From: a virus
Taxonomy: Duplodnaviria > Caudoviricetes
Direction: 5' to 3' (one strand)
DNA length: 64,000 nt
Virus record (IMG/VR): IMGVR_UViG_3300028591_000104
Span: 32,001-96,000 of that record
Of the stretch, positions 4,367 through 58,572 are shown in pieces. A program made the translations under genes and the position numbers. The notes under the pieces are model-generated. The model was not told the origin of the DNA. It did no database searches and saw nothing but the letters and a program-made list of their open reading frames with translations. Numbering within the stretch: the first letter of the stretch is position 1; each line of letters starts with the position of its first letter.

Positions 4367-4771
4367 ATGTTAATAGAAAACAATAAACAAAAAGGAAATG
4401 CTGGATTGGCATTAGGAATAGCTTAGTTTGGTGCTAATGGTTATACAGTTTCTTTACCTCTTAATGATACTCAATGGTATGATTTTATTGTTGAAAAAGA
4501 TGGTATTTTTCAAACTGTTCAATGTAAGTTTACTGACTCTAAAGATAATAGAATTAGTTTAAGATCTACTGGAGGAACTAATGGTAAAGTATATGACAGA
4601 GTAATTGATCATCCAATAGATTTGTTATTTTGTTCTAATGCAAATAATATGTGGGTTATTCCAATGGAAGAATTAAGATTACAAGGAAATGTTAGTTCTA
4701 TAGCTTTAAGAACAGAATTAAATTCTAATAATCAAGGTTTTGAAACTTGTAAATATTTAGTAAAAATTTAA
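4367..4771 (+). CDS. Free-standing PD-(D/E)XK endonuclease (group I intron-associated family); in-frame TAG 4424
   Basis: MLIENNKQKGNAGLALGIA*FGANGYTVSLPLNDTQWYDFIVEKDGIFQTVQCK; open to TAA; absent from the ORF track. Confidence 0.85.
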
Positions 4772-4774
4772 AAT

Positions 4775-4860
4775 GGAAGAGTAAACCGTAATTGGTAGCG
4801 GGCGTGGCTGTAGACCACGTGTCAGTGACTCTGGGGGTTCAAGTCCCTCCTCTTCCACCA
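4775..4860 (+). tRNA. tRNA-Tyr(GTA), G1:C72
   Basis: CGTGG-CTGTAGA-CCACG, variable arm, A73 CCA. Confidence 0.9.
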
Positions 4861-4865
4861 TTTAT

Positions 4866-5418
4866 CGAAGCATCTTCTAATGGTTAGGAAACTTGTCTGA
4901 TTTGAAGAATTAATCATTAATTTTAAACTATGTTAAATACAAAACAGCGTGGAAACATAACAGAATTACAATGTATGTTAGCATTTTTAAAATTAGGATA
5001 CAATGTATTAACTCCTTAGGGTGATTGCGAACGATATGATTTTGTAGTAGATATAAAAGGTAATTTTTATAGAATACAAGTTAAATCGGCGAATGCAAAC
5101 CACCTAGAAGAAGGATATATAGTATTTAATACTTCTAATAAAACTACTAGGGGAGGAACTTTTGTTCGTCATCCATACACAAAAGATGAAATTGATTATT
5201 TCGCAACATTTTTTAATGAGCAATGTTATTTAGTACCAGTGAATGAATGTAGTATTTTTGAAAAAAGATTACGATTTACTCCTCCAAAAAATGGACATAC
5301 TAAAGGAATAACATTTGCTACTGAATATGAATTAGAAAAGGTGGTGAAAAAAATAATTAATGAATAACATCTTTGAATCAAGCAAGTAATGGTAGTTCGA
5401 TTCTATCTGCTTCGACCA
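4866..5418 (+). tRNA. tRNA-Ile(GAT) interrupted after the anticodon by a 478-nt insertion (exons 4866-4901, 5380-5418)
   Basis: Joined halves give CGAAGCA/TGCTTCG acceptor, CTTGT-CTGATAA-GCAAG anticodon arm, GGTAG-TTCGATT-CTATC T arm, ACCA. Confidence 0.85.
4930..5367 (+). CDS. PD-(D/E)XK endonuclease inside the tRNA-Ile insertion; in-frame TAG 5017
   Basis: MLNTKQRGNITELQCMLAFLKLGYNVLTP*GDCERYDFVVDIKGNFYRIQVKS; paralogous to 4367 and 7617. Confidence 0.88.
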
Positions 5419-5419
5419 A

Positions 5420-5995
5420 TGCTCTGGCGCTAGGTCTAAGAGGATAAATTATTTATCTAGCTAACTGCGGGGAAGGAAGTTAAACCGACGAAGAGACTGC
5501 GAGGGTTTACTAGGTCGCGTTGAGGCAGTAATGCCAATAGTGGGTAAGCACCAGGGATGGAAACGCAGAGAGTTCCGAAAAACCTAGTTTTTATTTAGTT
5601 CCTAACCAAATATCCAGAGTATTTTCTTAACAGCCCGTCTGGAGGCGTAGGTTATTGAAAGCACCGCAGTGGATTGACGCTGCTAAGACCAGACAGCTGG
5701 CGAATGAGTATTCCTGAATTGCCAGGAAGGTGTGCACCGCACTGGGCCTGCGGGTCCACCCACCTCATACTTGCGGGAGATATAAATGAGACAGAGGGAA
5801 CTCCAGTGATAGATTCGCTGCGCGCGGAGGTTGTGCTCCGCTGAGGGAAGTAGGCCCCTGACACAAGCACTGACCAAGGTAGTAACAGTCCTTGGTAAAC
5901 TGGCAAGCCGATATGCGTCCAGTGCTTTTAATCTCAAAGTGAGAGCGTGGTTCGAGTCCACCTACCTCCCTTAACCGGGGGGTGCAGGTGCAATA
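5420..5995 (+). ncRNA. Large structured non-coding RNA candidate(s)
   Basis: GC-rich; closing helices 5420-5427/5614-5621 and 5641-5650/5962-5969; T-arm GTGG-TTCGAGT-CCAC. Confidence 0.55.
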
Positions 5996-6011
5996 CCTTT
6001 GAGATTATTAT

Positions 6012-6095
6012 ACCCGAGTGGTGGAAGTGGTAGACACGCTAGTCTTAGAATCTAGTGCCTTGTGCGTAAGAGTTCGAATCTCTTCTTGGGTACCA
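6012..6095 (+). tRNA. tRNA-Leu(TAG)
   Basis: Leu-type D arm GGTGGAAGTGGTAGACAC; loop CTTAGAA; variable arm; ACCA. Confidence 0.92.
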
Positions 6096-6102
6096 TTTAT
6101 AT

Positions 6103-6178
6103 TGGAGGCTACCCAAGCGGTTATGGGGCTGTTCTTATAAAGCAGTTGCGGTGAGTTCGACTCTCACGCCTCCGACCA
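6103..6178 (+). tRNA. tRNA-Ile(TAT)
   Basis: CTGTT-CTTATAA-AGCAG; ACCA. Confidence 0.85.
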
Positions 6179-6331
6179 CGCTCATATTGATGAGCCTAAA
6201 ATAGGAATTTATGGGGATTGTCAAGTCAATCGGGATTTAATGGCAAAACTTTATTTGCTCGTAACTGTAGAGGTCATTGGTCCCAAGCATAGGAGCACCT
6301 AAATTAGAAGATTACAACTTACTATTAAAAT

Positions 6332-6407
6332 GCTTAGATAGCTCAGTAGGTAGAGCGAGGGACTGAAAATCCCTGCGTCAGTGGTTCAATTCCGCTTCTA
6401 AGCACCA
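6332..6407 (+). tRNA. tRNA-Phe(GAA)
   Basis: AGGGA-CTGAAAA-TCCCT; ACCA. Confidence 0.95.
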
Positions 6408-6415
6408 ATTATTAT

Positions 6416-6494
6416 GGGGATTGGGACTGCTTGGAGTGGTCACCTGCCTTGCAAGCAGGATAGCAGACGGGGTCGGTGCCCGTAATCTCCACCA
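6416..6494 (+). tRNA. tRNA-Ala(TGC), atypical D/T loops
   Basis: CCTGC-CTTGCAA-GCAGG; G3:U70; ACCA. Confidence 0.85.
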
Positions 6495-6497
6495 TAT

Positions 6498-6571
6498 GCC
6501 CGGTTAGTTTAATAGGAGAATCCCTCTCTTACAAAGAGGAGGAGAAGGAGCGTAACCTTCACTGGGTACCA
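6498..6571 (+). tRNA. tRNA-Val(TAC)
   Basis: CCTCT-CTTACAA-AGAGG; T loop AGCGTAA; ACCA. Confidence 0.85.
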
Positions 6572-6574
6572 TAT

Positions 6575-6651
6575 GTCTGGCTGATGGAATTGGTATACGT
6601 ACTCGGCTCAAACCCGAGGTTATCTGGGTTCGAATCCCAGGCTAGACACCA
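6575..6651 (+). tRNA. tRNA-Leu(CAA) with short variable region
   Basis: CTCGG-CTCAAAC-CCGAG; Leu-like D arm; ACCA. Confidence 0.85.
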
Positions 6652-6657
6652 TTATAT

Positions 6658-6732
6658 GCTCGCATAGGCTAATGGAGAGACCTCCTGGCTACGAACCAGG
6701 CAGTGAAGGTTCGAGTCCTTCTGTGAGTACCA
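6658..6732 (+). tRNA. tRNA-Arg(ACG)
   Basis: CCTGG-CTACGAA-CCAGG; ACCA. Confidence 0.9.
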
Positions 6733-6736
6733 ATAT

Positions 6737-6897
6737 CATCGGTGGCGGAATAGGTAGACGCTATTGGCTTGGGAAGTAGATTATGTCTGAGGCTCACTGC
6801 CTCCTCAGTGCAGACCGAGATGAAGATGTATTCATATCTGCACGGGCTGAAGATTGAAAACGCATAGTTATGTAAGGTGCAAATCCTTACCCGATGT
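6737..6897 (+). ncRNA. tRNA-like RNA (acceptor, D and T arms; expanded insert replaces the anticodon arm), copy 1
   Basis: CATCGGTGGCGGAATAGGTAGACGC ... TATGTAAGGTGCAAATCCTTACCCGATG; termini shared with 16270-16459. Confidence 0.7.
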
Positions 6898-6981
6898 TTT
6901 TATAAAAAAATTAAATTTATAGGCTTAGGTAAGAGGACCTTGTAAGTAGTTGATAGTGGAACAATAACCTAATTTTAATAT

Positions 6982-7351
6982 GGGGGTGTAATAGGTTTCG
7001 ACAGGGTTAAAAAGTTTAGATAAGCGAACAGAGGATTCTCGTTGTGCCTCTATAAAAAACGAGAACTTTTAAATATAATCGCTAATGATTACGCTTTAGC
7101 AGCCTGATAATGCTGCCGTTTACTTTATTTAATCTGTAAGATAAGGTAAATGTACGGTTTCAGACCTTGATTATTAGAGGTGAAATAATCAAAACTTATT
7201 TTAGTGGTTCGGCTAAGATATTTTATTCAGAACTCCTTGATTATTAATTTGCCAATAGAGGAATAATTAAAGGATAAATAAATATTGGCTATGTTCGTAG
7301 AAAGTCTAAGGTTTTTAGTTTTGGACAGGGGTTCGACTCCCCTCACTTCCA
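6982..7351 (+). ncRNA. ssrA: tmRNA; tag ORF 7081-7107 ANDYALAA-TGA
   Basis: 5' GGGGGTGTAATAGGTTTCGAC, 3' GGACAGGGGTTCGACTCCCCTCACTTCCA, G3:U70, YALAA tag. Confidence 0.95.
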
Positions 7352-7514
7352 ATCTGACATAACAAAACCCTCCACGTGGGGTCAGATGGGCAACATATTA
7401 TTTATGGCTAATTTTGTTAAATTTTATAATTGAGTTCGAAGAATGAACTCTGACCCACAAAATTCATTGGTCAATTTTTTATAATTTATCTATTAAATTT
7501 TTGAAGTATAATAA

Positions 7515-7591
7515 GAGGGTATAACTCAGTTGGCTAGAGTAACGGTCTTTTAAACCGTAGGTCGTGGGTTCAAGTCCCACTACCCTCACCA
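7515..7591 (+). tRNA. tRNA-Lys(TTT)
   Basis: ACGGT-CTTTTAA-ACCGT; canonical. Confidence 0.95.
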
Positions 7592-7616
7592 AAATATACT
7601 TCAAAGGAGATAGATT

Positions 7617-8357
7617 ATGAATAGTAAAAACAAAGGTAATATTGGAGAATCTCAAGCTTTAGCTGAATTTACGAAAAGAGGAATACAAGTTTCTATTCCT
7701 TTTGGAGATAATGCTAGATATGATTTAATAGCAGACTTCAACGGAAAATTAAATAAAATTCAAGTAAAATAGTGTAATCAACAAATAGTAAATGGTTCTA
7801 TTAGTTGTCCTTGTGCTAGTAGTACAAATCATACTACAAATAAGCATTATGATACTTATAAAAATGATATTGATTATTTTGTATTTTATTTAGTTGAATG
7901 GGATGACATTATTATTGTTCCTATTGAAGAAATAGGAGATAAAAAAGCAATCTGTTTTAGAAAATCAATACCTGTTTCGAGTCAAAATTATCATTTAGTA
8001 CAAGATTATACTTTTTCTAAATTTTTTGATGATAAAAAAGAAGAAATAGAAGAAAATCCAATTATTGCTCTAAAAAAAATTACAGATAAAAAGAATTATT
8101 GTATAGATTGTAACACTCCCATTACTAAAGGGGCTGTAAGATGTATGAGCTGTGCCGCAAAATTGCGACCTAGGAAAGTTGAAAGACCGACAAGAGAAGA
8201 ATTAAAACAGTTAATTCGTCATGTTCCATTTGTCAAATTAGCTGAACAATATGGAGTAAGTGATAAAGCAATAGCAAAATGGTGTATAGCAGAAAATTTA
8301 CCATCTAGAAAAAAAGATATTTTACTTTACTCTGATGAAGAATGGGATAAAATTTAA
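7617..8357 (+). CDS. PD-(D/E)XK endonuclease with C-terminal Zn ribbon and HTH; in-frame TAG 7770
   Basis: RBS AAGGAG; SIPFGDNARYDLIAD..KIQVK*CN; in frame with ORF 8145-8357 (CIDC..RCMSC, HTH). Confidence 0.85.
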
Positions 8358-9223: not shown

Positions 9224-9227
9224 TATA

Positions 9228-10606: not shown

Positions 10607-10697
10607 CGGGCGGTATGCAAGTGGTCAAAGTACGCGGACTCTAACTCCGATGCCAGTAGCTAAGGCTTCGCAGGTTCGAATCCTGCCCGCCCGACCA
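10607..10697 (+). tRNA. Amber-decoding tRNA (anticodon CTA at 10641-10643), tRNA-Tyr-like class II body, C1:G72, A73
   Basis: CGGGCGG/CCGCCCG-A-CCA; GCGGA-CTCTAAC-TCCG (cf. Tyr GCGGACTGTAAATCCG); long variable arm; GCAGG-TTCGAAT-CCTGC. Confidence 0.92.
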
Positions 10698-12354: not shown

Positions 12355-12428
12355 GCGGGATATGGTCTAGAGGGCTAAGACGCCGGCGCGGAGCCGGAGA
12401 CGTGAGGTTCGAATCCCACTATTCTGCA
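12355..12428 (+). tRNA. Degenerate tRNA-Pro(CGG)-like element, no CCA
   Basis: D arm and GGTTCGAATCC T arm present; aberrant loop CGCGGAG. Confidence 0.5.
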
Positions 12429-16134: not shown

Positions 16135-16219
16135 TGGGGGGTGTCCGAGTGGTTAATGGAGCCAGGCTTTGACCCTGGTAGCTTAGCTTTCGTGGGTTCG
16201 AATCCCACCCCCTCAGCCA
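16135..16219 (+). tRNA. tRNA-Gln(TTG) with extended variable arm
   Basis: U1:A72, G73; CCAGG-CTTTGAC-CCTGG; AGCTTAGCT variable hairpin. Confidence 0.85.
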
Positions 16220-16833: not shown

Positions 16834-19800
16834 ATGGCAACAGTTGACAATAGAAGTATTACAACTAATATGGAAGAAATATTCCTCTTACAGTCCATGG
16901 ATGGCGGCGGCTCGGGTAGTGGCGGTGGATTTAACGGTAAATATTTAGCCATTGAAGCTGCCTTAAATCAGCAATTCGGTGAACCATCTATATCAATGGG
17001 TACTAAAAGCTATGCTGCTAAATATGGAAGTATTGTAGTTGGTACTGACAGCAAATCTGGTGAATATAACACTATTACTTTTGGTAATAATAATGTAAAT
17101 ACTAGTTATGAAAGTTTAGTATTGGGTAATAGTAATGAAATACATATGACCTATCCAGCTAGACCAGAAATAGCAGGTCTTATAGTAGGTGGGCATAATA
17201 ATAAACTTTATCCTATATTGTATGATAGTAATTATAATCGAATTACTATTGAAGGAGTTGTTCCTGTTTATTATTTTGAAGGTTCTTTTTATGAAAGTTT
17301 GGATTATGTAAATCCAACCACCCCTGAGAATAATAAAATTTATGTTGATTTATTATCTGATACTGATAATAGATATTTATATTATAATGATGAGCTTTTT
17401 AGTTTTCAAGCATTGAAAAATTTAGGTTGGATAATTCCTGATACTAGTATTTTAGGTATTATTTCTGGTGAGAATAATGTATATAGAATAGGCAGCAATA
17501 ATGATTGGGCCTGTGTTTATAGTTTTGGAGATGCAAATAAAATAATTAATGAATTTAATGATAATCTTCATTTTATAGCAGGGCAAGATAACGAAATAAG
17601 TGTTGTAACTAACAAGGATAAAAATCATAATATTCCAGACTCAGAGAGTACATTAGTTGCTTTTGGTAGCCGAAATAAAATAGATTTACAAGTTAATTCT
17701 AAAGCAGGTAGTCAACTTTATTTATTAGGCTATAATAATGAATTTTCCAATGAAAATATAACTTCTAAGTTTGATAGTACTGATGTTAATTTTATATGTG
17801 GGGAAGGAAATAAACTTTTAATAAGAGATCAATATAATGATAAGAATAATATAACTGTTGAAAATAATATTATTTTTGGTAGAGGCAATAAATTAGAGTT
17901 TAGTAATTATAACTATATCTATGGACTTAATGGATATAGTAATATTGTCTTAGGTGAAAATAATAAAATTTTTGGACGTGACGCTCATAGTGGCACTAAT
18001 ACCAATCGAAATATAATTATAGGTCAAGATAATAAAATTGGTGGTAATGAATATGATGTAGAAGAAAGAAAATGTGATTCTTTACATCAAAATTATATCT
18101 TTGGTAATGATATAGAATTATCAACTACAGGAGATTTAAAAGATAATGTTTATCTTGGTAAATCTCATGGATTAACATATAATCCTTCTGTAATTAATAA
18201 CGTTATTGGTGGAAATCAAGTATTTTTTAAAGGTTCTAAATAGTGTAGTGATAATTTATTAGTTGGACCTAATTCAAGTAGTTTAATAGTTAGTGGTTCT
18301 GGTAATTTAGGCTTAGGAAAAAATTCAATTTATGGAAATAATTGCGTTGTTGTAGGCGAAGATAATACGATTAAAGCTAATATTAGAAATATCGGAGAAT
18401 ATTATTCAGGTAGTATTTATAATGAAGGTGATTTTTGTTATTATAATGATATTCTTTATATTTGTAAAAGTAATAATGTAACCGGTCCTTTTAATATGCA
18501 AAATTGGTAGGAACCTGAATTAGGTAACTATTCATATATTTTTGGTAGAAGGAATGGTGTAAATGGTGATTATAGTATTGTGATTGGAGAACTCAATGCA
18601 GTAACTGGTGATTATAATGTTGTATTTGGAAAAAATAATACTATTACTAAAAATTATAATGCAGCATTTGGTCATGACAATTCTATGAATGGTTCTTATA
18701 ATAGCTTAACTTTTGGAGAACAAAATATAATACAATCAAGTGATAGTTTTGTCGGAGGATATTATGGAAAATCGACAGGCACAACTGGTTTTTGTTTTAG
18801 CGGTTTAGGTACTACCCCCGAGGAATTTTATGGTGTAGATTTAATTTATTATTTTCCAGAAGCGGATGAAATAACAGATGAGCGCATTATTTTTAATACA
18901 GCTAAATCCGTAACTAAAATTACAATTAAATTAAATTATACTACTAAAACTATAGAAGCTTTAAAACGTGTAAGCGCAGCTGCTATTTACGCTAGTAATT
19001 TACAAAGTGGATTTGGTTAGTATGATTTAAATAATCCTGATGGGCCTCAAGTAGGAGGTACTAGTTTTGGAGTTGATCCTAGTCAACAAGATTTATTAAT
19101 AAGTTTAGAAAATCCAGAGCTTACATTAAATCTTAGTTCACCCATATCTATGCCTGCAAATAGATTTATTAAAAGAAGTGAAATATCAGGATGGACCTCA
19201 GCATGTGTCGGTTATGGTCCTAATATTCAATCTTCTGATAAATCACAAGTATTAAAAACGGGTGGAGTAGCTATAGGTACTGGTGTAATAGCTAATGGTA
19301 TGTGTCAAACTGTTATAGGCAGAGGTAATATATCAGATTCAGATAGTTTATTTATTATAGGTAACGGTAGAATTACACCAGCTTATGATGCAAACCATAA
19401 TCCTTATAGTGATACTTTAGATAGGTCTAATGCACTTACTGTAGACTGGGATGGTAACCAAGTACTTGCGGGCAAGCTTACTGTCGGCACGCAACCTACG
19501 GCCGCGAATGATGTAACCACTAAAACATATGTTGATACAGCAGATGCAGCTATATCAGCCGAAATTGAAACTCCTATAACTGGACTTAAAGCACGCATGA
19601 CAACAGCCGAAGGCGCGATTTCAGATCTCGAAACAACAGTTGGAGATAGCACATCAGGCTTAGTTAAAGATGTAAATGATTTACAAACTGAAGTAGAAGC
19701 TTCTACTACTGGATTAATAGATAGAACTACTAATCTTGAAACAACTGTAGGTGATAGTAATAGTGGTTTAGTACATGATGTAGACGACCTTGAAGATCGC

Positions 19801-20070
19801 GTAACTACACTTGAACAAGCACCCCTTCCTACTGTATCACTTTCTCAAACCAATACAACAATTACTGGTTTGTCACAAGGAGATACTGATATAACATTAC
19901 CTTCTGGATATACTGATAATAGTATTGTAGATATTTATATAGATAGATTGCATTATTGTAATATTTTAGATTTCACAATTAATCAAGGTATTGCTTCTTT
20001 CTCTACTTCTCCAATAGCAACAGGAAATGAATTAGTTCAAGTTAGTATAACAAATGTTAATATATCTTAA
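16834..20070 (+). CDS. Large beta-helical adhesin / tail fibre-like protein (~1078 aa); TAGs at 18241, 18508, 19018
   Basis: Three ORF-track fragments in one frame separated only by TAG; GxxN repeats, YadA-like neck, coiled coil. Confidence 0.8.
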
Positions 20071-24363: not shown

Positions 24364-25140
24364 ATGAGCTATAAAGATTGTGATATAGTCTATATCCTAA
24401 AAGATGGTATAGACCCGGCAGAATTAACATAGTCATTAAGAAGTGTAGATAAAAATTTTCCTCATAGAAAAGTATGGTTTGTGGGGGCACAACCAGAAGG
24501 TTTAACCCCTGACCTCAGGCTGCCGCACAAGCAATCTGGCTCTAATAAGTGGGAAAGAGTCTGCTCTTCTTATCTTAAAATTTGTAATAATCCTACCATA
24601 AGTGAGAATTTTTTCTTATTTAATGATGACTTTTTTGTACTTAAAAGAATTGATAGAGACGATGAGTTTATTAATTTTGTAGACGGAACTCTAGAGAACA
24701 GGGTGAAAAAATTAAATAATAATTTGAATGGAAGTTCAACTTATTCAAAAAAATTGGCTGATTTATCAATTTATTTAAAGATGAAGAATTTAGACACAAT
24801 GAATTTTGCTTTACATTTACCCTTTTTATATAATAAATCTTTAATTAAGAAAACTCTTAATGAATTTCCTAATAGTCCTATGTTTAGATCGGCTTATGGG
24901 AATTTAAATGATGTTCCTTATAGATCTCATAAAGATATAAAAATTTATGATAGAGTAACAATTCCAGGTGAAGATTGGGATTATGTCTCAACTACAGAGG
25001 AAACTTTTGCTAAAGGAAAAGTAGGAGAATATATCAGAAACCTTTTCCCAGAACCAAGTAGATTTGAACCTGGTTATTATGAGGCTAAAACTAAGGAGTT
25101 ATAGACGGAAGAAGGTGAAGAAAGATACCATGTACTTTAA
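24364..25140 (+). CDS. Stealth-family (hexose-phosphate transferase)-like protein; TAGs at 24430, 25102
   Basis: DIVY..ELT*SLRSVDKNFP..VWFVG; FFLFNDDFF. Confidence 0.75.
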
Positions 25141-25162
25141 TTTAAGAGTTAATAATAAATAT

Positions 25163-41500: not shown

Positions 41501-41940
41501 AACAACTTATTATTGCTAGAAAAGATTTAAATATGTCTGCTGGTAAACTCGCCGCACAGGTGAGCCATGCCAGCATGGCTTTTATCTCTACTATGATAAG
41601 AAATAATACTAAATATGATAATAGTATGAATTTTTTACCTTGTCACTTTTTAATAGAAAAAGAAATATATGAAGAATGGTTTCAAGGAAGTTTTACTAAA
41701 GTAGTGTGTGAAGCAAAAAATAAAAATCATTTGATGAAAGTAGTAGAAGTAGCTAAGACCATGGGATTAGTCGAAGGTAAAGATTTCTTTTTAATTAAAG
41801 ATAATTGTTATACTGAATTGGAACCCGAAGAAGTCGATGAGAATGGCATCGGCAGAACTCTTACCTGTATTGGTTTTAAACCTTTACCTGATGAGATGGC
41901 AGAAAAGTTAAGCAAAAAGTATCAGTTATATAAAGGATAA
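41497..41940 (+). CDS. Peptidyl-tRNA hydrolase, Pth2 type
   Basis: KQLIIARKDLNMSAGKLAAQVSHAS; KVV; IKD..TE; TCIGF.P. Confidence 0.88.
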   Translation: MKQLIIARKDLNMSAGKLAAQVSHASMAFISTMIRNNTKYDNSMNFLPCHFLIEKEIYEEWFQGSFTKVVCEAKNKNHLMKVVEVAKTMGLVEGKDFFLIKDNCYTELEPEEVDENGIGRTLTCIGFKPLPDEMAEKLSKKYQLYKG

Positions 41941-42527: not shown

Positions 42528-43235
42528 ATGAAAATATTAGTAGCATGCGAAGAGTCACAAGAAGTGTGTAAGGCTTTTCGAGAGAAGGGACATGAGGCTT
42601 AGAGTTGCGATATAATCGATTGCTCAGGTGGACACCTAGAATGGCATATTAAACAAGATGTATTACCTTTAATTAATGGTAATTGTACTTTTGAAACTTG
42701 CGATGGAATATCTCATGCGGTCGAAGGTAAGTGGGATATGATTATAGCGTTCCCTCCATGTACTGACCTTACAACAACGGGTGCGCGAGTTTTTGAACGC
42801 AAGCGCGCCGATGGTTCCCAAGTAAGGTCTATAGAGTTCTTTGCAAAGTTTCTTGAGGCTGATTGTGATAAGATAGCTATAGAGAATCCAGTGGGTATAA
42901 TATCAGGAAATTATATTAAACAGTGGTTTCCAGACCTTTGTGAAAAATATAATCTACCACGCGCTTATACTCAGATTGTTCACCCTTGGATGTTTGGCGC
43001 CAATTATACAAAGAGAACCTGTTTATGGCTAAAAGGATTACCGAATCTTATTCCAGAAGTAGAAGAGGAACCAGAAATTGAGTAGGTAGAATGGGTAGAT
43101 AAGAAAAGTGGTAGAACCAAAAGACAAAATAAATGGTATTATGAATTATCTTGTTTACCTACTGCGCAAAGAGCTAAGGCGAGATCAAAAACATACCCAG
43201 GCTTTGCACAAGCCATGGCTGAACAATGGGGGTAA
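42528..43235 (+). CDS. DNA cytosine methyltransferase-like protein; TAGs at 42600, 43083
   Basis: MKILVACEESQEVCKAFREKGHEA*SCD, AFPPCT, ENPVG, KRTCLWLKGLP, RSKTYPGFAQAMAEQWG. Confidence 0.85.
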
Positions 43236-44042: not shown

Positions 44043-45137
44043 ATGTCTTATTTGATAGATTTTATCAAAGAAAATCCTGATTGGAGAGAGCTTTTGGCTA
44101 AGGAGCCTTATTGCTTGAAGATTAAGGATGAGGATAATTATACTCTTTTTATGTATAATCAGTTATGCTCTGATTTCTATAATCCAATAGTAAAGGAAGC
44201 TAGAGGTATAATTTTAGACCTCACGGGCAAGGAGCCTCGTGTAGTGTGCAGAGCCTTTGATAAGTTTGGTAACTATGGCGAAGGTTATGTTGATTCCATA
44301 GACTGGTCTTCCGCTGTAGTACAGGAGAAGGTAGATGGTTCTATTATGAAGCTTTGGTTTGATAAGGGCTCTTGGCATGTATCTACTAATTCTTGTATCA
44401 ATGCATTTAATGCACAGTTGTCTAACTCTAAAATAACTTTTGGTAAGTTGTTCACGCAGGCTTTTCCTTCTGACAAGATAAATCAGTTGGATACGGATTA
44501 TACTTATATCTTTGAGCTTGTGTCTCCTTACAACCGGGTTGTAATCAACTATGGCTCTGATACTAAGTTGTATCTGTTGGGTAAGAGAAATAATAAGACA
44601 GGCTTTGAGGAAATACCTGAAGATTTGGGTATAGCTAAGCCGGATACTTATCCTCTCTCTTCCCTTGAGGAGTGTATTGAAGCAGCTAATGCTTTGAATG
44701 ATAATGAAGAAGATATTCAGTATGAAGGTTTTGTAGTAGTAGATGAGGCTTTTCATCGAGTAAAGATTAAGTCCCCCTACTATGTAGCTAGACATCATAT
44801 ACTTACTAAGACACCTTCTCTTGAAGACTTGGTATTAGTATATTTGCGTCATGAGCAGGAAGAGTTTTTAACTTACTTCCCAGCTTATACTCATCCTTTG
44901 AATCTTATCTATTTCTTCTTCTCTGACTTGGACTATTATATGTTTAAGGCTAGACTTGATTGGAATAATATGAACAAAGATAGAAAGGCTTTTGCCATCA
45001 AGTATAAGAATCATCCTTTTACTCATTTTTATTTCGATGCTATAAAGAATGAAGATTGGTCTATTGAAAGAGTAAAGAATTTGTCTACTGCTGAACTTGC
45101 GAGATTTATAAAGAATTATTATGGAGGAAATATATGA
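44043..45137 (+). CDS. RNA ligase, T4 Rnl1-like
   Basis: EARGII, FDKFGN, EKVDGS, FELVSP.NRVV, EGFVV, RVKIKS. Confidence 0.88.
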   Translation: MSYLIDFIKENPDWRELLAKEPYCLKIKDEDNYTLFMYNQLCSDFYNPIVKEARGIILDLTGKEPRVVCRAFDKFGNYGEGYVDSIDWSSAVVQEKVDGSIMKLWFDKGSWHVSTNSCINAFNAQLSNSKITFGKLFTQAFPSDKINQLDTDYTYIFELVSPYNRVVINYGSDTKLYLLGKRNNKTGFEEIPEDLGIAKPDTYPLSSLEECIEAANALNDNEEDIQYEGFVVVDEAFHRVKIKSPYYVARHHILTKTPSLEDLVLVYLRHEQEEFLTYFPAYTHPLNLIYFFFSDLDYYMFKARLDWNNMNKDRKAFAIKYKNHPFTHFYFDAIKNEDWSIERVKNLSTAELARFIKNYYGGNI

Positions 45138-46057
45138 TTAATATAAAGCATTTTATGGATATACAAAATTTAATAGAGAATGAGACAGCAATTAAGGCTT
45201 CTAATGCTAAGGCATTTGAGGTTGGTGATATTATACAAATAACAGAGAAGTGGGACGGTTCAAATGCTTCTGTCGGTTATGATGCTGATTCTGATAGTCT
45301 TGTTGCTTTTTCTAGAAAGCAGACTCTGTCTTTGGGAAATACTCTTAATGGCTTTTGGGATTATGTTCAGGGATTGGACAAGACTGGTTTTAAGGCTAAT
45401 CCCACATATAGAGTATTCGGTGAGTGGGGAAATAAGAATAAGATAATTTATAATGCTGACAATTACAAGAAGTGGTATGTTTATGATATTTTTGATATGG
45501 GTACAGAGAAGTGGCTACCACAGGATATTGTAAAGAAGTTTTGTAATGACTATGGATTTATTTATATCCATGTTCTTTATGAGGGTCCGTTCATTTCATG
45601 GGACCACTGCAGAAGCTTTATGAATAGCCCTGCTTATGGAGATAGACAGGAGGGTGTGGTTGTTAAGAATCAGACAAAGCTTAATGACCCTAATACAAGA
45701 CAGCCTTTTTACCTTAAGATTGTCAATGAGGATTTTAAGGAGACAAAGGCTCCTAAGGTTGTTGACCCCGAGCAGGAGGCTAAGAAGGTTTATGCTTATT
45801 CTCTTGCCGAGAGTATTGTAACCAAGAATAGAATTGAAAAGATGATATATAAGCTCAGAGATGAGCAGCTTATTCCTGATACACTTACTCCTGGAGATAT
45901 GGGTAAGCTGGCTAAGGTACTTCCTAAGAGAATCTATGAGGATTGCGTTAAGGAGGAGCCTGAGACCATTGCAAAGGTTAATGACACTGGAATAAACTTT
46001 AGTAAGGTTTGTGGAACTCTGACTATGAAGATTGCAAGAGACATTATTTGCAATTAA
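45134..46057 (+). CDS. RNA ligase, Rnl2-like
   Basis: TEKWDGSN, FGEW, YDI, EGVVVKN. Confidence 0.85.
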   Translation: MINIKHFMDIQNLIENETAIKASNAKAFEVGDIIQITEKWDGSNASVGYDADSDSLVAFSRKQTLSLGNTLNGFWDYVQGLDKTGFKANPTYRVFGEWGNKNKIIYNADNYKKWYVYDIFDMGTEKWLPQDIVKKFCNDYGFIYIHVLYEGPFISWDHCRSFMNSPAYGDRQEGVVVKNQTKLNDPNTRQPFYLKIVNEDFKETKAPKVVDPEQEAKKVYAYSLAESIVTKNRIEKMIYKLRDEQLIPDTLTPGDMGKLAKVLPKRIYEDCVKEEPETIAKVNDTGINFSKVCGTLTMKIARDIICN

Positions 46058-46110: not shown

Positions 46111-48087
46111 ATGAAAGAACAGATTAGGCAAATTATTAATCAGCTTAATGAGGCTACAAAGGCCTACGATGAAGGGCATCCCATGATGAGTGATAAGGCA
46201 TGGGATGACCTCTATTTCTATCTTCAGCAATTAGAGCATCAGTCTGGAATTTATTTTCCAGATAGTCCTACTCAAAAGATTAACTTTGAAATAACTACTC
46301 CATTAAGGAAGGTAGAGCATACTCATTTAATGCTTAGTTTGGATAAAACTAAAGATTTAAATGAAATTAAGACTTTTGTTAAAAAGCATCCATCTATTTG
46401 TATGGGAAAGATGGATGGTTTGACTTGCGCACTGAGGTATAAGGATGGGGAATTAATCGCTGCTGAAACGCGTGGAAATGGTGTAATTGGTGAAGATGTT
46501 TTTTATAATATTATAAATATTAATAATATTCCCAAAAAGATAAAAATAAAAGATGAAGTTGAAGTAGATGGTGAAATTATCTGTAAGTATGATGATTTTG
46601 AGCCATTTGCAGAAGAATATAAGAATCCAAGAAACTTCGCAGCTGGAAGCATTAGATTATTAGACAGCGAAGAATGTGCAAAAAGAAATTTATCTTTTAT
46701 TGCATGGGATTGGATTAATAATCCTTATCCTAGACTTGGTGATGCTTTAGTTGAGTTAAAAGGATTAGGATTTACTACTGTTCCTTATTGGGATGGAATT
46801 ATAACAGAGTTTGAGATTGATAATTTAAATGAAATTGTTGATTTTGTTAAAAATTCTTGTGCCAATGAAAAGCTCCCAATAGATGGATTAGTATTTAAGT
46901 ATGATTATGTGACAGATTATAAAGCTGAAGGTAGAACAACTCATCACTTTAGAGGTGGTTTAGCTTTTAAGTTTTATGATGAATGTGTTGAGACCGAAAT
47001 TGAAGATATAGAGTGGTCTATGGGCAGAGAAGGCAGATTAACTCCTGTAGCGATTTTTAAGCCTATAGAGCTTGAAGGAACTGAGGTATCAAGAGCAAGT
47101 CTTCATAATTTAAGTGTTCTTGATGAACTTTGCGGCGGCCAGGCGCCTATGCGTGGTGACATAGTCAGCGTGTACAAGGCGAATCAAATTATACCTCAGA
47201 TTGATATATGGACAACGACCATTGAGCCTCCTGACTATTTTTCAGTTGACCAGGGTTTAGGTGATATGTTAGCACCGCCTGAGGTATGTCCAATATGCGG
47301 CGGCCGCACCGAAATAATAGAAGAAGATTCTGGTACAAAGAATCTCTAGTGTACAAATGACGCTTGCCCCGGTAAGCTAATAAATAGATTAGTTCACTAT
47401 TGCGATATGAAAAAGGGCATGGCAATTAAAGGACTTTCTGAGAAATTAATTTCTCGTTTTATGAACAAAGGTTGGCTTAATAGTTTTTTTGATTTATACA
47501 ATTTACACCAGTTCCGTACAGATATGGAAAAAATGGAAGGACTGGGACCGAAATCCGTAGATAATATATTAACCGCAATAGAAGAAAGTAAAAATTGTGA
47601 ATTATGGCAATTTATCTCTGCTCTTGGTATTCCTCTTATCGGAACCACCGCGAGCAAAGACCTTGCGAACCATTTCAGTACTTGGGCAAACTTTTATAAA
47701 TCAATTAAGGAAAATTTCATATATAGTACACTTCCAAATTTTGGTTTTGAAATGAATAAGGCGCTTCATGACTATGATTATAGCGAAGCCGAAAAGATAG
47801 CGGCTATCCTTAATTTTAAAGAACCAAAAGCAGAAGAAATTATAAGCGAAATTTTACAAGGCAAGAAAATTTGCATAACAGGTAAATTGGTTCAGTTTAA
47901 GAACCGGAGTTTGTTCCAGGAGGCTGTTGAAGCTAGAGGCGGCAAGGTGGTGTCTGGTGTGACAGGAGCTACAGACTTCTTGGTAACTAATGACACAGAA
48001 AGCGGTACTGCTAAAAATCAAGCAGCTAAAAAATTAAACATACCTATTATGTCAGAAGAAGATTTTATCAAAAATTTCTTGACTTAA
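46111..48087 (+). CDS. ligA: NAD-dependent DNA ligase; TAG 47347 within the Zn finger
   Basis: KMDG, NPRNFAAGS, CPICG..NL*CTNDACP, HhH, BRCT in one frame. Confidence 0.93.
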
Positions 48088-48697: not shown

Positions 48698-48749
48698 TAA
48701 ATATTCTTGGGGGAGAGCTTAATTGTTCTCCCCCATTTTTTTATTTATT

Positions 48750-49775
48750 ATGTGGTATTTTATTATAGGACTGGTTGCCCTGGCGGCCGGCTGTATCGGG
48801 ACCTACCTTATGCTTAGGTCTCGTTTGGCTGTTACGCAGGAGATCAACCAGAAGGTGAAAAAGGAGAACGAGGATAATTTAGCTCTAAAAGCTAGACTTG
48901 TTTCTGAAGTAGAAAGTCTAGAAACTCAAAAATCTAGGTGTCAGAATGATATTAATTCTATAAATTTTAATATCCAACAGGCTCAAACTAACCTTTCAGG
49001 TTTAAATAACCTTTTGAAAGAAAATACCGCAGCCATTGATGAAACTACCAAGAGGTAGGAAGAACAAGCACTAGAAAGTATGGGCGAGCGCATGGACGCG
49101 GCCGCCGAAAAAGAGAGAATTAAGTATCTCGATGCTATTACTAGTTATAGAGCTGAATATGAAAGCGTTTTAGAAGATTTAGCCGAACAATTTAAAAAGA
49201 TTACTGAGGAAGATGAAGCGACCATAACCACTTTAAAAGACTCAATAGGAAATTTAAGAAAAAAGGTTTTGGCTATAACTGAAGCTAACAAACGCCTTGA
49301 AGAAGAAAAAGATAAAATTAACTTTTATAAACTTCAAATTTCTGATTTAGATAAGGAAGAGCTTGCTAAATTAAGAGAAATAGGTAAGATTTTAAGAGAT
49401 AGTACCCCATTAAATAAACTTATTTGGACTTATTATTTTAGAAATCCTTATAATGATTTGTGCGGCCGTGTGATTGGTTCCGAGGCAAAGACCGGCATCT
49501 ATAAAATTACTAATACCTTAAATGGTAAGTGTTATATAGGTCAAGCAGTCAACATCAAGAACCGTTGGGGCGACCATATAAAGATGGGTTTGGGCGCCGA
49601 CACGCCTTCGCGCAACAAGATTTATCCAGCTATGATGAAAGATGGAGTGGAGAATTTTACTTTTGAAGTTTTAGAAGAATGTAGTGGTAATCAATTAAAT
49701 GAAAGAGAAAAATTCTATATAGAGTTTTATGACTCTGTGAATTATGGATATAACGTAACGCGAGGAGGAAGCTAA
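48750..49775 (+). CDS. N-terminal TM, coiled-coil and C-terminal GIY-YIG nuclease; TAG 49056
   Basis: Two fragments in frame across TAG; TGIYKITN..CYIGQA. Confidence 0.8.
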
Positions 49776-50422
49776 TGAAGATAGAAAAGATCGAGTCCTA
49801 TGGCTGGGAGGCAGCCTTAAGAGGTATGCGCAATCCCATGAATAGTTGGGAGAAGTCTGATACTACCTATAATGAGAAAGGTATTCCTACTATTGGTCCT
49901 AATGATTTGAAATTAGCTACAAATCTTATTAAAGCTGGTCCAGAGCACGGTAAATGGGCAAGAATGGTAACTGTATCTATGGATATTACAGCGCCACTTT
50001 AGGTATGGAAAGAGCTCGACACCTACAAAGTGGGTACAACAGCTAATTCACAATCTACAATGCACAAACTTGCATCTGTCCCCATAACTATTGACTGTTT
50101 TGAAACAGACGATATGGCAGATGATTTGGAGATTTATACAACACCTTTGACCACTGCTGCTGATGTATTTAACCATTTAATAGGAGATTGCGAGCGTTTG
50201 CGTCAATTATATCTACAAACTAATGATGTTCGCTATTGGAAAGAACTGGTTAGATTACTCCCAGAAGGTTGGTTACAGACCAGAACATGGACAGCTAACT
50301 ATGCTGTATTAAGAACTATATATCATCAAAGAAAAAACCACAAACTCATAGAGTGGCATACCTTCCTTGATGAAATTATAAAAACTCTACCTTATAGTAA
50401 AGAGTTTATAGTTGACAATTAA
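49775..50422 (+). CDS. thyX: ThyX-like flavin-dependent thymidylate synthase; TAG 50000
   Basis: ALRGMRNPMNSW, EHGKWAR, ITAPL*VWKELDTYKVGT, STMHKL, NYAVLR..RKNHKLIEW. Confidence 0.8.
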
Positions 50423-54963: not shown

Positions 54964-56096
54964 TGGGATATGATAAAAAGGTAGTTAAAGATTTAATAAG
55001 CACCGATCAAATATTCGAACTATTGGAAGAATATGGCGGTGAACCTGAATATGCTTTTGAGGGTAATATTATATCTCGTACCATTTGTCATAACCACCCC
55101 AATGATGATGCTTCGCGTAAGTTGTATTATTATACAAATAGCAGATTATTTCATTGTTATACTGGTTGCGCCGAGCCTTCATTTGATGTTTTTCAGTTAA
55201 TCATAAAAATAGCAGATATACAATTTCATCAAGAGTGGGATTTAGACCAAGCTGTAAGATTTTTGGTTTATAGACTTGGCATCGATGTTCCAAGAGAAGA
55301 AAATGAAGAAGATCCAGTTCTACTAAAGCAAGATTTTGATTACTTTGATAAAATTAATAGAGTAAAAGAATTGGATATAAAAAATTATACAACTTTACTT
55401 AATCCTTATGATGAAAAAATATTAAATAGATTTAACTATAATGTAAAAATAACCCCGTGGATTAATGAAGGTATGAACCAAGAGACATTAGATAAATATA
55501 AGATAGGTTTTTATCCAGGCACTGATGTAATCACTATACCACATTATGATATTAATAATAATTTTGTAGGATTGCGCGGGCGCGCTTTGGTGCGCGAAGA
55601 TGCGGAGAAGTATGGTAAGTACAGACCCGTTCGCATTGGAAAAACTTTATATAACCATCCTCTTGGATTTAATCTATACGGACTTGAAAAAAATAAAGAA
55701 AGAATAAAACTTATGCAAAAGGCCGTGGTCTTTGAGGGGGAAAAGAGCGTCTTGTTATTTGACTCTTATTTTGGTTCAGAAAATAATATCTCGGTGGCAT
55801 GTTGCGGAAGTAGCTTTACAATTTATCAGTTTTATCTATTAAAAAATCTTGGAGTTAAAGAGATAATTATTGCATTTGATAAACAGTATCAACAATTCGG
55901 AGATGCTGAACATTTGCATTTAGTAAAAAATTTTTATAAAATATTAAATAGACACATAAATGATGTAATGGTGAGCTTTATATTTGATGGTGAACAAAAC
56001 CTAGGATACAAGGATTCTCCAATTGACAGAGGAGCAGATACATTTATGAAATTATTTCAGGAAAGAAGAGTGTTTGAAGGAGGAGTGTTTAAATGA
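54963..56096 (+). CDS. dnaG: DNA primase
   Basis: CH..CYTGC Zn region; TOPRIM FEGEKS, AFD. Confidence 0.85.
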   Translation: MGYDKKVVKDLISTDQIFELLEEYGGEPEYAFEGNIISRTICHNHPNDDASRKLYYYTNSRLFHCYTGCAEPSFDVFQLIIKIADIQFHQEWDLDQAVRFLVYRLGIDVPREENEEDPVLLKQDFDYFDKINRVKELDIKNYTTLLNPYDEKILNRFNYNVKITPWINEGMNQETLDKYKIGFYPGTDVITIPHYDINNNFVGLRGRALVREDAEKYGKYRPVRIGKTLYNHPLGFNLYGLEKNKERIKLMQKAVVFEGEKSVLLFDSYFGSENNISVACCGSSFTIYQFYLLKNLGVKEIIIAFDKQYQQFGDAEHLHLVKNFYKILNRHINDVMVSFIFDGEQNLGYKDSPIDRGADTFMKLFQERRVFEGGVFK

Positions 56097-57814
56097 ATTA
56101 GGAATTGCGGCAGCCGGTTGATAGAAACCTTTCACCGCTGCAAAATATATTTAAAAATAGAGGAATGCTTTAGGGAAAAGATGATATATTAACTTATGTT
56201 TAGCCTCCCGCTTCAGTTCAATATGATTTAACTCTCATAGAGAACTTGCGAGAGGGTGCTTCTATGTTAATGAAACATATTAAAAATAATGATAAGGTTC
56301 TTTTGGTAGTCGATGAAGACTGTGATGGATATACTTCTTCAGCTTACTTCTTGAATTACTTTAATAAACTATTTCCAGCTTTCGTACAAAATAACATAAA
56401 ATATGTTGTTCACCCAAATAAGGCGCATGGTATACCGACTAATCTAATAACAGATGAAAAATTAATTATAGTGCCCGATGCGAGTAGTAATGAATATGAT
56501 ATTCATAAAGAATTAAAGGAAAAAGGAATAGATGTATTGGTCATTGACCACCACGAAGCACCAGAGTTCTCTCAGTACGCATGTGTTATTAATAATCAAC
56601 TTGGTAACTACCCAAATAAGTCATTATCTGGTGTGGGAATGGTATATAAGTTCTGTAGTTTCTTTGATAAGCTAATGAACACTAATTATGCTAACACAAT
56701 GTTAGATATTGTTGCTCTTGGACTTGTTGGAGATATGATGGACTTACGAAATCTTGAAACAAGGTATCTCGTAAGAGAAGGTTTTACCACTATTACTAAC
56801 CCTTTTCTTAAGGCTATGGTAATAAAACAGGAGTATTCTGTTAAAGGTCATTTAAATCCCCATAAAGCAGCATTTTATATAGTTCCTGGTATTAACTCCG
56901 TTACGAGAATAGGAACGGTAGAAGAAAAATTAGTTTTATTTGAGTCAATGGTAGAATATAAAGCCTTTGAAATGATACCTTCAAATGGTAGAGGTAAAAA
57001 GGGAACTTTAGAGCCGAGAGTTGAACAGGCTGTCCGCAACTGTGTAAATATTCGCAATAGGCAAAACCGCATTAAAGACGATTTGGTAGAGAGTATAGAC
57101 GAATTAATTAACAGAAAGAATTTGCTAGAACACAAACTTCTTGTTATTAAAGTTGAAAATCCTATAAATACAGGTATTACTGGTCTTGTAGCTAACCAGA
57201 TAGCTAATAAGTATCAACGTCCAACTTTAATATTAAACTGGCGCAAAGAGCAACGCACCTGGGAAGGGTCCGGCCGCAACTACTCAAACTCCCCGCTTAA
57301 AGACTTTAGAAGTTTCCTTGAATCTACTGGACTTATTTTGTATGCACAAGGACATGCCTCAGCTTTTGGTTTTGGTATAAGCGATGAAAATTTTGAAACT
57401 TTTATCGGAAAAACCGATAAAAGTTTATCAGATGTAGAGTTTAACTATAAATATGATATAGACCTTGAATATGAAAATAATGATCTACTTAATGGAGATA
57501 TTATAGATATAGCTGAATGCGAAGACCTGTGGGGACAAAATATTGAAGAGCCACTTATCTTAATTAAAAATGTTACTGTTAATAAAGATAATATCTTTTT
57601 ATACAAGGAAAAAGTATTAAAGATAGAGAATCAAAACGGTATTAGTTTTGTGAATTTATCTTCTAACCAAGAAGAGTTTGATGCCCTTTATCCTAATGAT
57701 GGATATGTAAATTTAAATATAATAGGCACTTGTTCTATTAATGATTTTAATCAAATGGGGCAAATAAAAATTAAAGATTATGAAGTAGTTAGAAAGGGGG
57801 AATATTAGTTTTGA
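56093..57814 (+). CDS. recJ: RecJ-like DHH exonuclease; TAGs at 56099, 56171, 56201, 57806
   Basis: RBS GGAGG and ATG overlapping the primase stop; NRG, DEDCDG, DHH, GSGR, GHASAFG; ends EY*F-TGA overlapping the next TTG. Confidence 0.88.
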
Positions 57815-58572
57815 AAAAGTTTACTTTATTAATTTGTCAAGGAATAGTATTGTTATTTTCTCTTGTAGTTGGCTGTAATATTAAGGAAGAAGAAATAATA
57901 GAAACTGTTCCTACTACTACTGCTACAGAACAAAGTATTCCACCCCCTCCTATAACCCCTAAACCTTTACCAACCCCCGAGTAGAGAAGACCTTATGAAT
58001 ATGATGCCTCTTTATCATTAAAAGAAAAAGAAAAGATGGTAGAAGAGTGTAATTCTTATGTCAGTTATTTAAATTATTTTATTTGGGACGTAGATAAAGA
58101 TGATGTAATTTTAGACACTGAAGAAGTAATAGAATTGTATCTTGAGGATATAGGAATTTGGAAAGAAAAAGTAAAAGAATATCCAGTAGCAGCTACAGTA
58201 TGGCGCTGGGCAATCGAAGAAAAAGGATACTCAGAATATGTAGCTGCTGGGATTATAGGTAATATGATGGTTGAAGTGGGTGGTCATACAATGGTTTTAA
58301 AACATATGACAAGAGTAGAAAAATATTTTGGATTATGTATGTGGTATTTACCCTATAGCCCAGAAGTTGATGGAAAAAGTCTAAGAGACCAACTTAATTT
58401 TTTAGGAAAAACTATGGAAAAAAATATGGGTTCTGCTCATTATAAAGAACTTTTAAATAGTAAAAATGAAAAAGAAGCATCTATTATTTTTGCGATGTAT
58501 TATGAAAGATGTATAAGGCCGTATGGAAGACAATCTGAAGCGTCTCGTGCATACAGATATTTTACCAGTTGA
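57811..58572 (+). CDS. Secreted/lipoprotein-like phage-tail-lysozyme (Phage_lysozyme2-like) protein; TAG 57982
   Basis: Signal peptide LVVGC, Pro/Thr linker, AAGIIGNMMVE, GLCMW, DQLNF, YERC. Confidence 0.75.

Follow-up and report, generated by a model that had tools for sequence, protein, structure and literature searches.

A phage genome in which in-frame TAG appears to be read as tyrosine by a phage-encoded class II tRNA(CUA)

In the viral record IMGVR_UViG_3300028591_000104, genes that are otherwise intact are interrupted by in-frame TAG triplets, which raises the question of what TAG means in this phage. The record is one linear contig of 150,486 bp with a G–C content of 35% and a CheckV completeness of 93%; a window of 64,000 nt (bases 32001–96000 of the record) was analysed, and all positions below refer to this window unless marked as genome positions. 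It is very probable, judging from the sequence comparisons described below, that the phage reads TAG as a minor tyrosine codon by means of its own class II tRNA with a CUA anticodon, tRNA(CUA), and that TAA and TGA terminate translation.

TAG is a sense codon in the genes of this phage. All of the 24 in-frame TAGs listed in an earlier reading of the sequence alone (hereafter, the sequence-only reading) are indeed TAG triplets, and they fall within 15 open reading frames (ORFs) of the plus strand that are continuous when TAG is translated (Table 1). One more TAG, at 30445, is also in frame (ORF 29908–30462) and is still ambiguous, as it was first described: no aligned orthologue was found among the relatives at the C-terminus of this ORF, and either stop is possible, because the following gene begins at 30431. 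Neither TAA nor TGA occurs in frame within the TAG-bearing genes. Since TAG makes up only 23.6% of the stop triplets on the plus strand of the window, the probability of 24 out of 24 interruptions being TAG by chance is ~1e-15. This figure also bears on the explanation of the TAGs as damage or artefacts, that is, pseudogenes or sequencing or assembly errors. Such an explanation would suit a record that is a single metagenomic assembly, but it is only TAG, and never TAA or TGA, that interrupts the genes; 18 TAG positions are common to independently assembled relatives from other samples, essential genes (NrdD, ligase and structural proteins) carry TAG, and the matching tRNA is conserved. An artefact is thus considered vanishingly improbable.

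With TAG as sense, 130 ORFs end with TAA and 55 with TGA, in agreement with the earlier statement that real genes end in one of these two triplets. A comparison of the coding density under different codes, which the sequence-only reading had proposed, gave the highest value for TAG as sense: genome-wide, greedy ORF selection covered 79% under code 11, 89% with TAG, 81% with TGA and 85% with TAA as a sense codon, the gain expected of a recoded phage being at least 5–10%. Profile matches (Pfam/PHROGs) run across the TAGs in the NAD ligase, the RecJ-like DHH protein, the DNA methyltransferase, and the phrog_6721 and phrog_7999 proteins. Among 140 alignments that reach the C-terminus of the orthologue, none has a phage TAG coinciding with the orthologue's stop, so nothing indicates that conserved genes continue to terminate at TAG. 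Likewise, no conserved gene was found that needs TAA to be read through, and TAA terminates 130 of the 185 ORFs. As TAA and TGA remain stops, the code is neither NCBI table 29 nor table 15.

The identity of the inserted residue was addressed by the residues found in homologous proteins at the TAG columns. The clearest case is the anaerobic ribonucleotide reductase NrdD, encoded just outside the window (genome 97526–99781), which contains four TAGs. In an alignment with 120 homologues at 70–88% identity, the corresponding columns hold Tyr in 119/120, 119/120 and 117/120 sequences, and Tyr in 65 plus Phe in 44 of 120. Gln appears a few times at these positions, and only in the closest relatives. 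Contig look-up revealed that the proteins of those relatives can be reproduced from their DNA only 'with_TAG=Q', so these Gln residues represent the relatives' own TAGs translated under table 15. The same applies to the public protein entries of the lineage (P0001–P0008, P0241–P0243), which carry the TAG=Gln translation and have Gln at conserved Tyr positions. As a side observation, the match to NrdD extends over ~3.0–3.2 kb rather than 2.25 kb in L206, L207, L209, L210, L212–L214 and L010 (G002:C62), pointing to an inserted element (intein, intron or endonuclease) within it.

The last of these contigs (c62 below) is a 68-kb sequence binned in a Bacilli metagenome-assembled genome, with ~40 genes in common with the phage. 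It uses the standard code (density of 93% under code 11), and opposite the phage TAGs it has Tyr codons (TAT/TAC) at 19 of 27 positions and Gln codons at none. When all standard- or TGA-code relatives are pooled, Tyr is found opposite TAG in 58 of 79 cases, Gln in 0. Recoded relatives come from four further separate assemblies: relA (a 145.7-kb ENA contig, 71 kb of which was used), L007 (43 kb), L198 (16.7 kb) and L206 (15 kb, IMG/VR). The 18 TAG positions mentioned above are common to the phage and these contigs, and elsewhere TAG swaps mainly with TAT; among the non-TAG pairs opposite phage TAGs, Tyr accounts for 22 of 41 and Gln for 1. In the reverse direction, the TAGs of the relatives are paired with phage Tyr codons in 33 of ~50 non-TAG pairs (counted over the ten commonest residues), with TAG in 18 and with Gln in 1. 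Two apparent TAG-to-CAG pairs, at 53410 and 57790, were discarded, as they lie upstream of the real gene starts. Other sources of relatives contributed little: 71 IMG/VR loci with a DUF2828 gene are too distant and inform at most four sites, and no relatives were found among viral contigs when the ligase served as a probe.

Residue likelihoods (in natural-log units) were calculated with substitution frequencies taken from these very alignments. In the c62 alignments, Tyr reached −43.7 and the next best residue −74.5 (a margin of 31), and in the L006 and L007 alignments −42.0 and −66.3 (a margin of 24), respectively. Phe, Trp and His follow Tyr, Leu and Ser are rare, and Pro is absent. Gln is outside the six best residues, the probability of Tyr opposite a Gln codon being 0.003–0.005. 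A positive control was provided by three related IMG/VR phages that have the NrdD neighbourhood in common with this phage (L202, L212 and L214), the coding density of which rises from 0.68–0.78 to 0.92–0.93 with TAG as sense. Their TAGs align with phage Gln (14 cases, the top residue), and the method is therefore able to tell Gln from Tyr. In two others, L207 and L210, the density rises only when TGA is translated. Thus, the phage group seems to hold at least four codes: TAG=Tyr, TAG=Gln, TGA-sense and standard.

These counts also decide the case of ordinary code 15, in which TAG is Gln as in the described recoded gut phages. Public databases do store the proteins of the relatives with TAG as Gln, and the related L202, L212 and L214 appear to use that code. 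For the phage itself, however, the tally of homologue residues that the sequence-only reading had called for is dominated by Tyr, with Gln at 0/79 in standard- or TGA-code and 1/41 in recoded relatives, and the suppressor tRNA (see below) is of a class II, Tyr-like type and not of the U1–A72 Gln type. TAG=Gln is excluded, being refuted by the column statistics, and we consider this reading extremely improbable. The earlier proposal of TAG=Tyr stands on four lines that are independent of one another, namely the homologue columns, the standard-code relative, the TAG/TAT swaps and the type of the suppressor tRNA.

Individual sites within the window differ in how much they tell. The TAG at 31910 occupies the Tyr of the second motif of a GIY-YIG endonuclease, which has Tyr in two paralogues, twice in c62, in relA, in L197 and in nine IMG/VR homologues, i.e., in every homologue retrieved, in full accord with the alignment given in the sequence-only reading. 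Its methylase Tyr was also borne out: at 42600, 150 representatives have Tyr (99), Phe (36) or Trp (4), and relA and L198 have TAG. The second TAG of this gene, 43083, falls where the alignment is variable and gapped; relA has TAG there too. Both sites of the phrog_7999 protein (24430 and 25102) are TAT in relA and L198, as expected from the Tyr claimed for it; support for its naming as a Stealth protein is weaker than stated earlier, the Stealth_CR2 match being under the Pfam cut-off. In the RecJ-like gene, 56099 is TAG in relA and L007 (standard-code relatives, Tyr 3 and Ile 1), 56171 corresponds to Phe/Tyr, 56201 to Asn in all relatives, and 57806 to Tyr in relA, L007, L206 and c62, where the orthologues extend one residue beyond. 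Site 50000 is TAT in relA, with Tyr 2 and Phe 1 in standard-code relatives; the protein had been called ThyX-like, but it has no Pfam match; it matches phrog_6721, of unknown function. Site 49056 is TAT in c62 and GCC in relA, and 57982 is TAG in relA (other relatives, Phe 2 and Val 1).

The ligase offers partial support. Its Pfam domains flank the TAG (adenylation and OB before, HhH and BRCT after), ligases from PDB align across it, and Tyr, as proposed earlier, leads the column with 54 of 120 homologues, followed by Val (17), Ile (13), Trp (8) and Lys (8); Gln is absent from the eight most frequent residues listed. This is only a plurality, however, and the two closest homologues have Trp, whereas relA has Ile. 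Site 23132 is TAG in L198 as well and Tyr in two homologues, and the N-termini of the paralogues starting at 23093 and 20189, which the sequence-only reading had paired (TAG against Tyr at residue 14), are indeed in register. Apart from 33530 (Table 1), the remaining sites are of little use individually. In the three PDDEXK_5 genes, 4424 says little (a single IMG/VR homologue has Tyr, and a paralogue has Glu), 5017 has Phe in a paralogue and Met 3, Phe 3 and Val 2 in IMG/VR homologues, and 7770 has Ser and Phe in paralogues and Thr 4 in IMG/VR homologues. These sites stay weak because a PDDEXK_5 search across 400 Clostridia genomes gave only two weak matches. In relatives, the 1078-residue protein has counterparts that are single proteins of 1179–1346 residues; it has only six homologues, and conservation is poor around its three TAGs (Asp/Thr, Gly/Val and Asp/Trp, uninformative on their own). 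Sites 23573, 43083, 25169 and 25250 are also individually uninformative; the last two belong to ORF 25130–25441, a plausible gene with a frame open only with TAG as sense, for which no homologues were found in relatives, Pfam or PHROGs.

Table 1. TAG-bearing genes of the window and the suppressor tRNA.
Feature	Position	Strand	In-frame TAG	Matches and remarks
PD-(D/E)XK_5 endonuclease	4328–4771	+	4424	PF11645, E 7.6e-15; match spans TAG
PD-(D/E)XK_5 endonuclease	4930–5367	+	5017	PF11645, E 6.7e-33
PD-(D/E)XK_5 endonuclease with C-terminal extension	7617–8357	+	7770	PF11645, E 2.7e-29
Suppressor tRNA, anticodon CUA	10607–10697	+		91 nt, ARAGORN; Rfam tRNA model, 44.1 bits
1078-residue protein, beta-roll/fibre-like	16834–20070	+	18241, 18508, 19018	One frame if TAG is sense
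BspA-type leucine-rich-repeat protein	23093–24229	+	23132, 23573	PF13306, E 5e-21
phrog_7999/weak Stealth_CR2-like protein	24364–25140	+	24430, 25102	phrog_7999, E 6.6e-43
103-residue ORF, putative gene	25130–25441	+	25169, 25250	ATG at 25130, purine-rich stretch upstream
184-residue Zn-ribbon-like protein	29908–30462	+	30445	TAG five codons before TGA
GIY-YIG homing endonuclease	31865–32512	+	31910	PF01541; TAG = Tyr of second (YIG) motif
78-residue protein	33482–33718	+	33530	relA orthologue 79% identical, Tyr at site
DNA methyltransferase	42528–43235	+	42600, 43083	phrog_757, E 1.4e-58, full length
NAD-dependent DNA ligase	46111–48087	+	47347	TAG in zinc-finger region
350-residue protein, C-terminal GIY-YIG domain	48723–49775	+	49056	PF01541, homing-endonuclease PHROGs
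215-residue phrog_6721 protein, function unknown	49775–50422	+	50000	phrog_6721, E 3.4e-60, full length
RecJ-like DHH exonuclease	56093–57814	+	56099, 56171, 56201, 57806	PF01368, RecJ_OB
Phage tail lysozyme-like protein	57811–58572	+	57982	PF18013

Genome-wide, TAG is a minor Tyr codon (148 occurrences vs. 2103 of TAT/TAC, ~6.6% of Tyr codons), and 55 TAG sites lie inside alignments to relatives. The frequency of TAG per 1000 codons is 1.3–2.2 at 60–100 kb of the genome (the replication module) and 3.3–8.6 at 130–150 kb. Among the aligned sites, 16 of 55 TAGs are located in the first 60 codons, compared to 184 of 1184 TAT/TAC codons (odds ratio, 2.2; p, 0.013). The raw 5' enrichment (odds ratio, 3.3–3.9) was distrusted, because the starts of longest ORFs include non-coding TAGs. 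In many genes, TAG occurs near the start, at codons 3–58, e.g., in those beginning at 56093, 42528, 31865, 23093, 24364 and 33482.

Such a distribution would fit partial, time-dependent suppression, with TAG terminating early, perhaps ending a few genes (29908–30447), and being read as Tyr only after the suppressor has built up. The depletion of TAG in the replication module and its enrichment in structural genes and near 5' ends speak for it, as do the ambiguous triplet at 30445 and a host that presumably keeps its release factor 1 (RF1); the same model has been proposed for code-15 phages (bioRxiv 10.1101/2021.08.26.457843). On the other hand, none of the 140 C-terminal alignments has TAG at the orthologue's stop, and the replication-module enzymes NrdD, RecJ-like exonuclease and ligase carry TAG as well, so the suppressor must act whenever these enzymes are made. 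We regard a TAG that still terminates for part of the infection as less likely than not, though a serious possibility.

The matching CUA tRNA reported in the sequence-only reading was found by both ARAGORN and Rfam (Table 1). Based on its cloverleaf, it is a class II molecule with an 18-nt variable region and a D arm made up of a 3-bp stem and an 11-nt loop; the acceptor stem has 7 bp with C1–G72 as the first pair, followed by A73 and an encoded CCA. The gene is located 3 nt upstream of that for tRNA-Cys, and this order is kept in relA and L198, where compensatory changes are seen in the acceptor (C–G to U–A) and the D stem (G–U to G–C), the stem of the variable arm is retained, and the loop length varies. 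With the anticodon masked, isotype profile hidden Markov models gave 32–40 bits for Tyr, 22–24 for Gln, ~20 for Pro, 16–20 for Ser and ≤7 for Leu; the tRNA-Tyr profile was built on Lachnospirales from a small reference set collected by BLAST with tRNA(CUA). In a BLAST search against 201 Lachnospirales genomes, long matches were obtained (14–78 to 14–89), and each of the six regions fetched holds tRNA-Tyr(GUA). All eight host-type tRNA-Tyr genes were the top global matches to tRNA(CUA) among 131 tRNAs. In its D-arm, anticodon arm, long variable arm and A73, tRNA(CUA) conforms to a bacterial tRNA-Tyr. CUA suppressors of other phages in the loci analysed, by comparison, are 73–78 nt long, belong to class I and score ≤11 bits on the Tyr profile. 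Over positions 62–91, the acceptor stem and T-arm are ~90% identical to host tRNA-Pro, and as far as sequence comparison goes, tRNA(CUA) resembles a chimera of a tRNA-Tyr body and a Pro-like acceptor end. No ribozyme was found downstream of it with Rfam. The tRNA-Pyl label assigned by ARAGORN was rejected, since it follows the anticodon alone; the long variable arm, the 11-nt D loop and the Tyr columns do not agree with it.

Several other phage tRNAs look chimeric in sequence. The 85-nt tRNA at 16135–16219, called tRNA-Gln(UUG) by ARAGORN, shows a long variable arm and matches the Tyr profile with 44 bits and the Gln profile with 10; its acceptor end is of the Gln type (U1–A72, G73), and relA and L198 carry an ordinary 74-nt tRNA-Gln(UUG) in its place. 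This tRNA does not turn CAA into a Tyr codon, as CAA and CAG still align with Gln in the relatives. The tRNAs at 4775–4860 and 6575–6651 comprise a tRNA-Tyr(GUA) with a Leu-like D loop and G37, which fits the Leu profile better than the Tyr profile (Rfam, only 33 bits), and a tRNA-Leu(CAA) of only 77 nt with a short variable arm.

The unusual acceptor end leads to a further alternative, namely that TAG is sense and the residue is not, or not only, Tyr, either because another synthetase charges the chimeric tRNA or because reading is ambiguous. The proximity of the acceptor stem and T-arm to tRNA-Pro would favour it, as would the C1–G72 pair, atypical for bacterial tRNA-Tyr, and the columns with a preference for Phe, Trp or Asn. 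Against it, Tyr is the maximum-likelihood residue by 24–31 units with Pro absent, and TAG occupies columns of invariant Tyr in NrdD, in the GIY-YIG motif and in the methyltransferase. Moreover, ProRS (prolyl-tRNA synthetase) identity needs G35 and G36, which a CUA anticodon does not have. We regard a different or mixed residue as very unlikely. The reading of TAG as Tyr nevertheless has several points to its disadvantage. Residues other than Tyr (Phe, Ser, Ile, Asn and others) make up roughly a quarter to one half of those aligned; such a fraction is expected from ordinary divergence (Tyr self-conservation of 0.56–0.81), and it would also allow a minority of other insertions. About 10 of the 24 window sites have no signal of their own. 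Of the eight host-type tRNA-Tyr(GUA) genes, those with ends cleanly framed by ARAGORN have G1–C72 where tRNA(CUA) has C1–G72, and the first acceptor pair matters to bacterial tyrosyl-tRNA synthetase (TyrRS) at least in microhelix assays. The early/late contrast in TAG usage is modest, and gene starts are approximate. Finally, the assumption of a standard-code host draws on the avoidance of TAG in early genes and on the Lachnospiraceae-like NrdD and tRNA.

For the reading of TAG as Tyr, the following mechanism may be proposed. Searches with positive controls found neither a class Ib aminoacyl-tRNA synthetase (TyrRS) nor an RF-1 domain in the phage genome, and since the phage encodes no TyrRS, that of the host would charge tRNA(CUA). 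The established identity elements for bacterial TyrRS are A73, the long variable arm and U35, and C34 is tolerated, as the classical Tyr amber suppressor shows. The charged tRNA would out-compete host RF1, and the full-length TAG-bearing proteins, most of which are late, may depend on accumulated suppressor, by analogy with what has been proposed for TAG-to-Gln phages; this timing is suggested by TAG being rarer in the replication than in the structural module and enriched near 5' ends. The similarities of NrdD and tRNA point to Lachnospiraceae or Clostridia as the host group, and to our knowledge these bacteria are not recoded.

Among phages differing from the code of their host, Borges et al. 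(bioRxiv 10.1101/2021.08.26.457843) reported seeing only TAG-to-Gln and TGA-to-Trp changes. Code 15 was validated by Peters et al. (PMC9523058), TAG was assigned to Gln in phAss-1 (PMC10607447), and Cook et al. and Benler et al. translated every amber-recoded phage with table 15 or with Gln. In Mgcod, TAA-to-Tyr is included as a hypothetical code only. Kienbeck et al. (PMC10879173) predicted the Tyr isotype for 1.1% of 180 phage suppressor tRNAs; this is a prediction only, labelled 'code 29' and made without an analysis of TAG columns, and their conclusion was code 15. No description of a TAG-to-Tyr phage code was found in the searchable literature, subscription-only papers being outside its coverage, and the earlier suggestion that the code is undescribed holds to that extent. 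The system belongs to suppressor-tRNA-based stop recoding of phages, with an amino acid and a tRNA type that are undescribed in the same literature.

The phage shares with TAG-to-Gln gut phages a CUA suppressor, in-frame TAGs in many genes, a gain in density, the absence of a phage-encoded synthetase, a lower frequency of TAG in early or replication genes and a host that presumably uses the standard code. It differs in the residue, Tyr instead of Gln, and in the suppressor, which is of class II and 86–91 nt long in this lineage compared to the 73–78 nt Gln-type tRNAs. The supF/su3 suppressor of E. coli, a tRNA-Tyr with a CUA anticodon that inserts Tyr at amber codons, is similar in having a bacterial tRNA-Tyr body with a G34-to-C change, in UAG being read as Tyr and in charging by the resident TyrRS. 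However, supF/su3 is a laboratory mutant that gives partial suppression, and the genes of the cell are independent of it, whereas the phage tRNA(CUA) is a conserved gene on which well over 50 in-frame TAGs of real genes depend, and has a C1–G72 end. NCBI tables 29 (Mesodinium; TAA and TAG are Tyr), 14 and 33 (TAA is Tyr in some mitochondria) also turn a TAR stop into Tyr, one transversion away from TAT/TAC as in the phage, but TAG alone is reassigned here, most genes end in TAA (130/185), and the genetic system is that of a phage of bacteria, not of a nucleus or organelle.

Taken together, this is probably the first natural TAG-only-to-Tyr code, used by a lineage of ~145–150-kb phages with an SPbeta-like replication module, known from at least five independent assemblies, with a chimeric suppressor and with related phages in which TAG=Gln or TGA=Trp. 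If true, amber reassignment in phages is not restricted to Gln, contrary to the published generalisation that phage codes differing from the host are only TAG-to-Gln and TGA-to-Trp, and code changes arose repeatedly within one group. It would also imply that bacterial TyrRS can be co-opted. In practice, prodigal-gv, Pharokka-gv, Mgcod and public collections translate TAG-recoded phages by table 15, which therefore puts Gln at conserved, sometimes catalytic, Tyr positions in this lineage. The occurrence of TAG=Gln, TGA-sense and standard codes among related phages makes a compact system for studying the origin of code changes, and groups engaged in genetic-code expansion may be interested in a Tyr amber-suppressor tRNA that is natural and conserved and has an atypical acceptor end.

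Regarding the rest of the genome, the structural genes are found on the minus strand at 105–148 kb of the genome. The replication module is similar in sequence to the one in SPbeta: its DnaE-type polymerase shares 38% identity with SPbeta YorL, and relA counterparts of window genes match the YorF and YorH families. The window also encodes gyrase B and gyrase A, in addition to the NAD ligase and the RecJ-like exonuclease. The minus-strand ORF 27860–28495, produced by the greedy caller, is probably a shadow of plus-strand genes. Genes resembling homing endonucleases are numerous (4328–8357, 31865–32512, 38421–39164 and 48723–49775), with three PDDEXK_5 genes interspersed with the tRNAs and the GIY-YIG type represented at least three times; one homing-endonuclease-like gene is located between gyrB and gyrA, where relA has none.

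According to ARAGORN and Rfam, the genome carries 26 tRNA genes and one transfer-messenger RNA (tmRNA). An Rfam tRNA match of 42 bits at 12356–12427 is absent from the ARAGORN output. The tmRNA, with the tag ANDYALAA, lies at 6982–7351 within the tRNA cluster; it might, speculatively, rescue ribosomes running off host mRNAs when the phage suppresses host TAG stops. The relA orthologues of the genes at 41497–41940, 44043–45137 and 45134–46057 match a PTH2-type peptidyl-tRNA hydrolase, a T4 Rnl1-type RNA ligase and a member of a second RNA ligase family, respectively, and these three genes together with the 26 tRNAs suggest a heavy investment in tRNA supply and repair.

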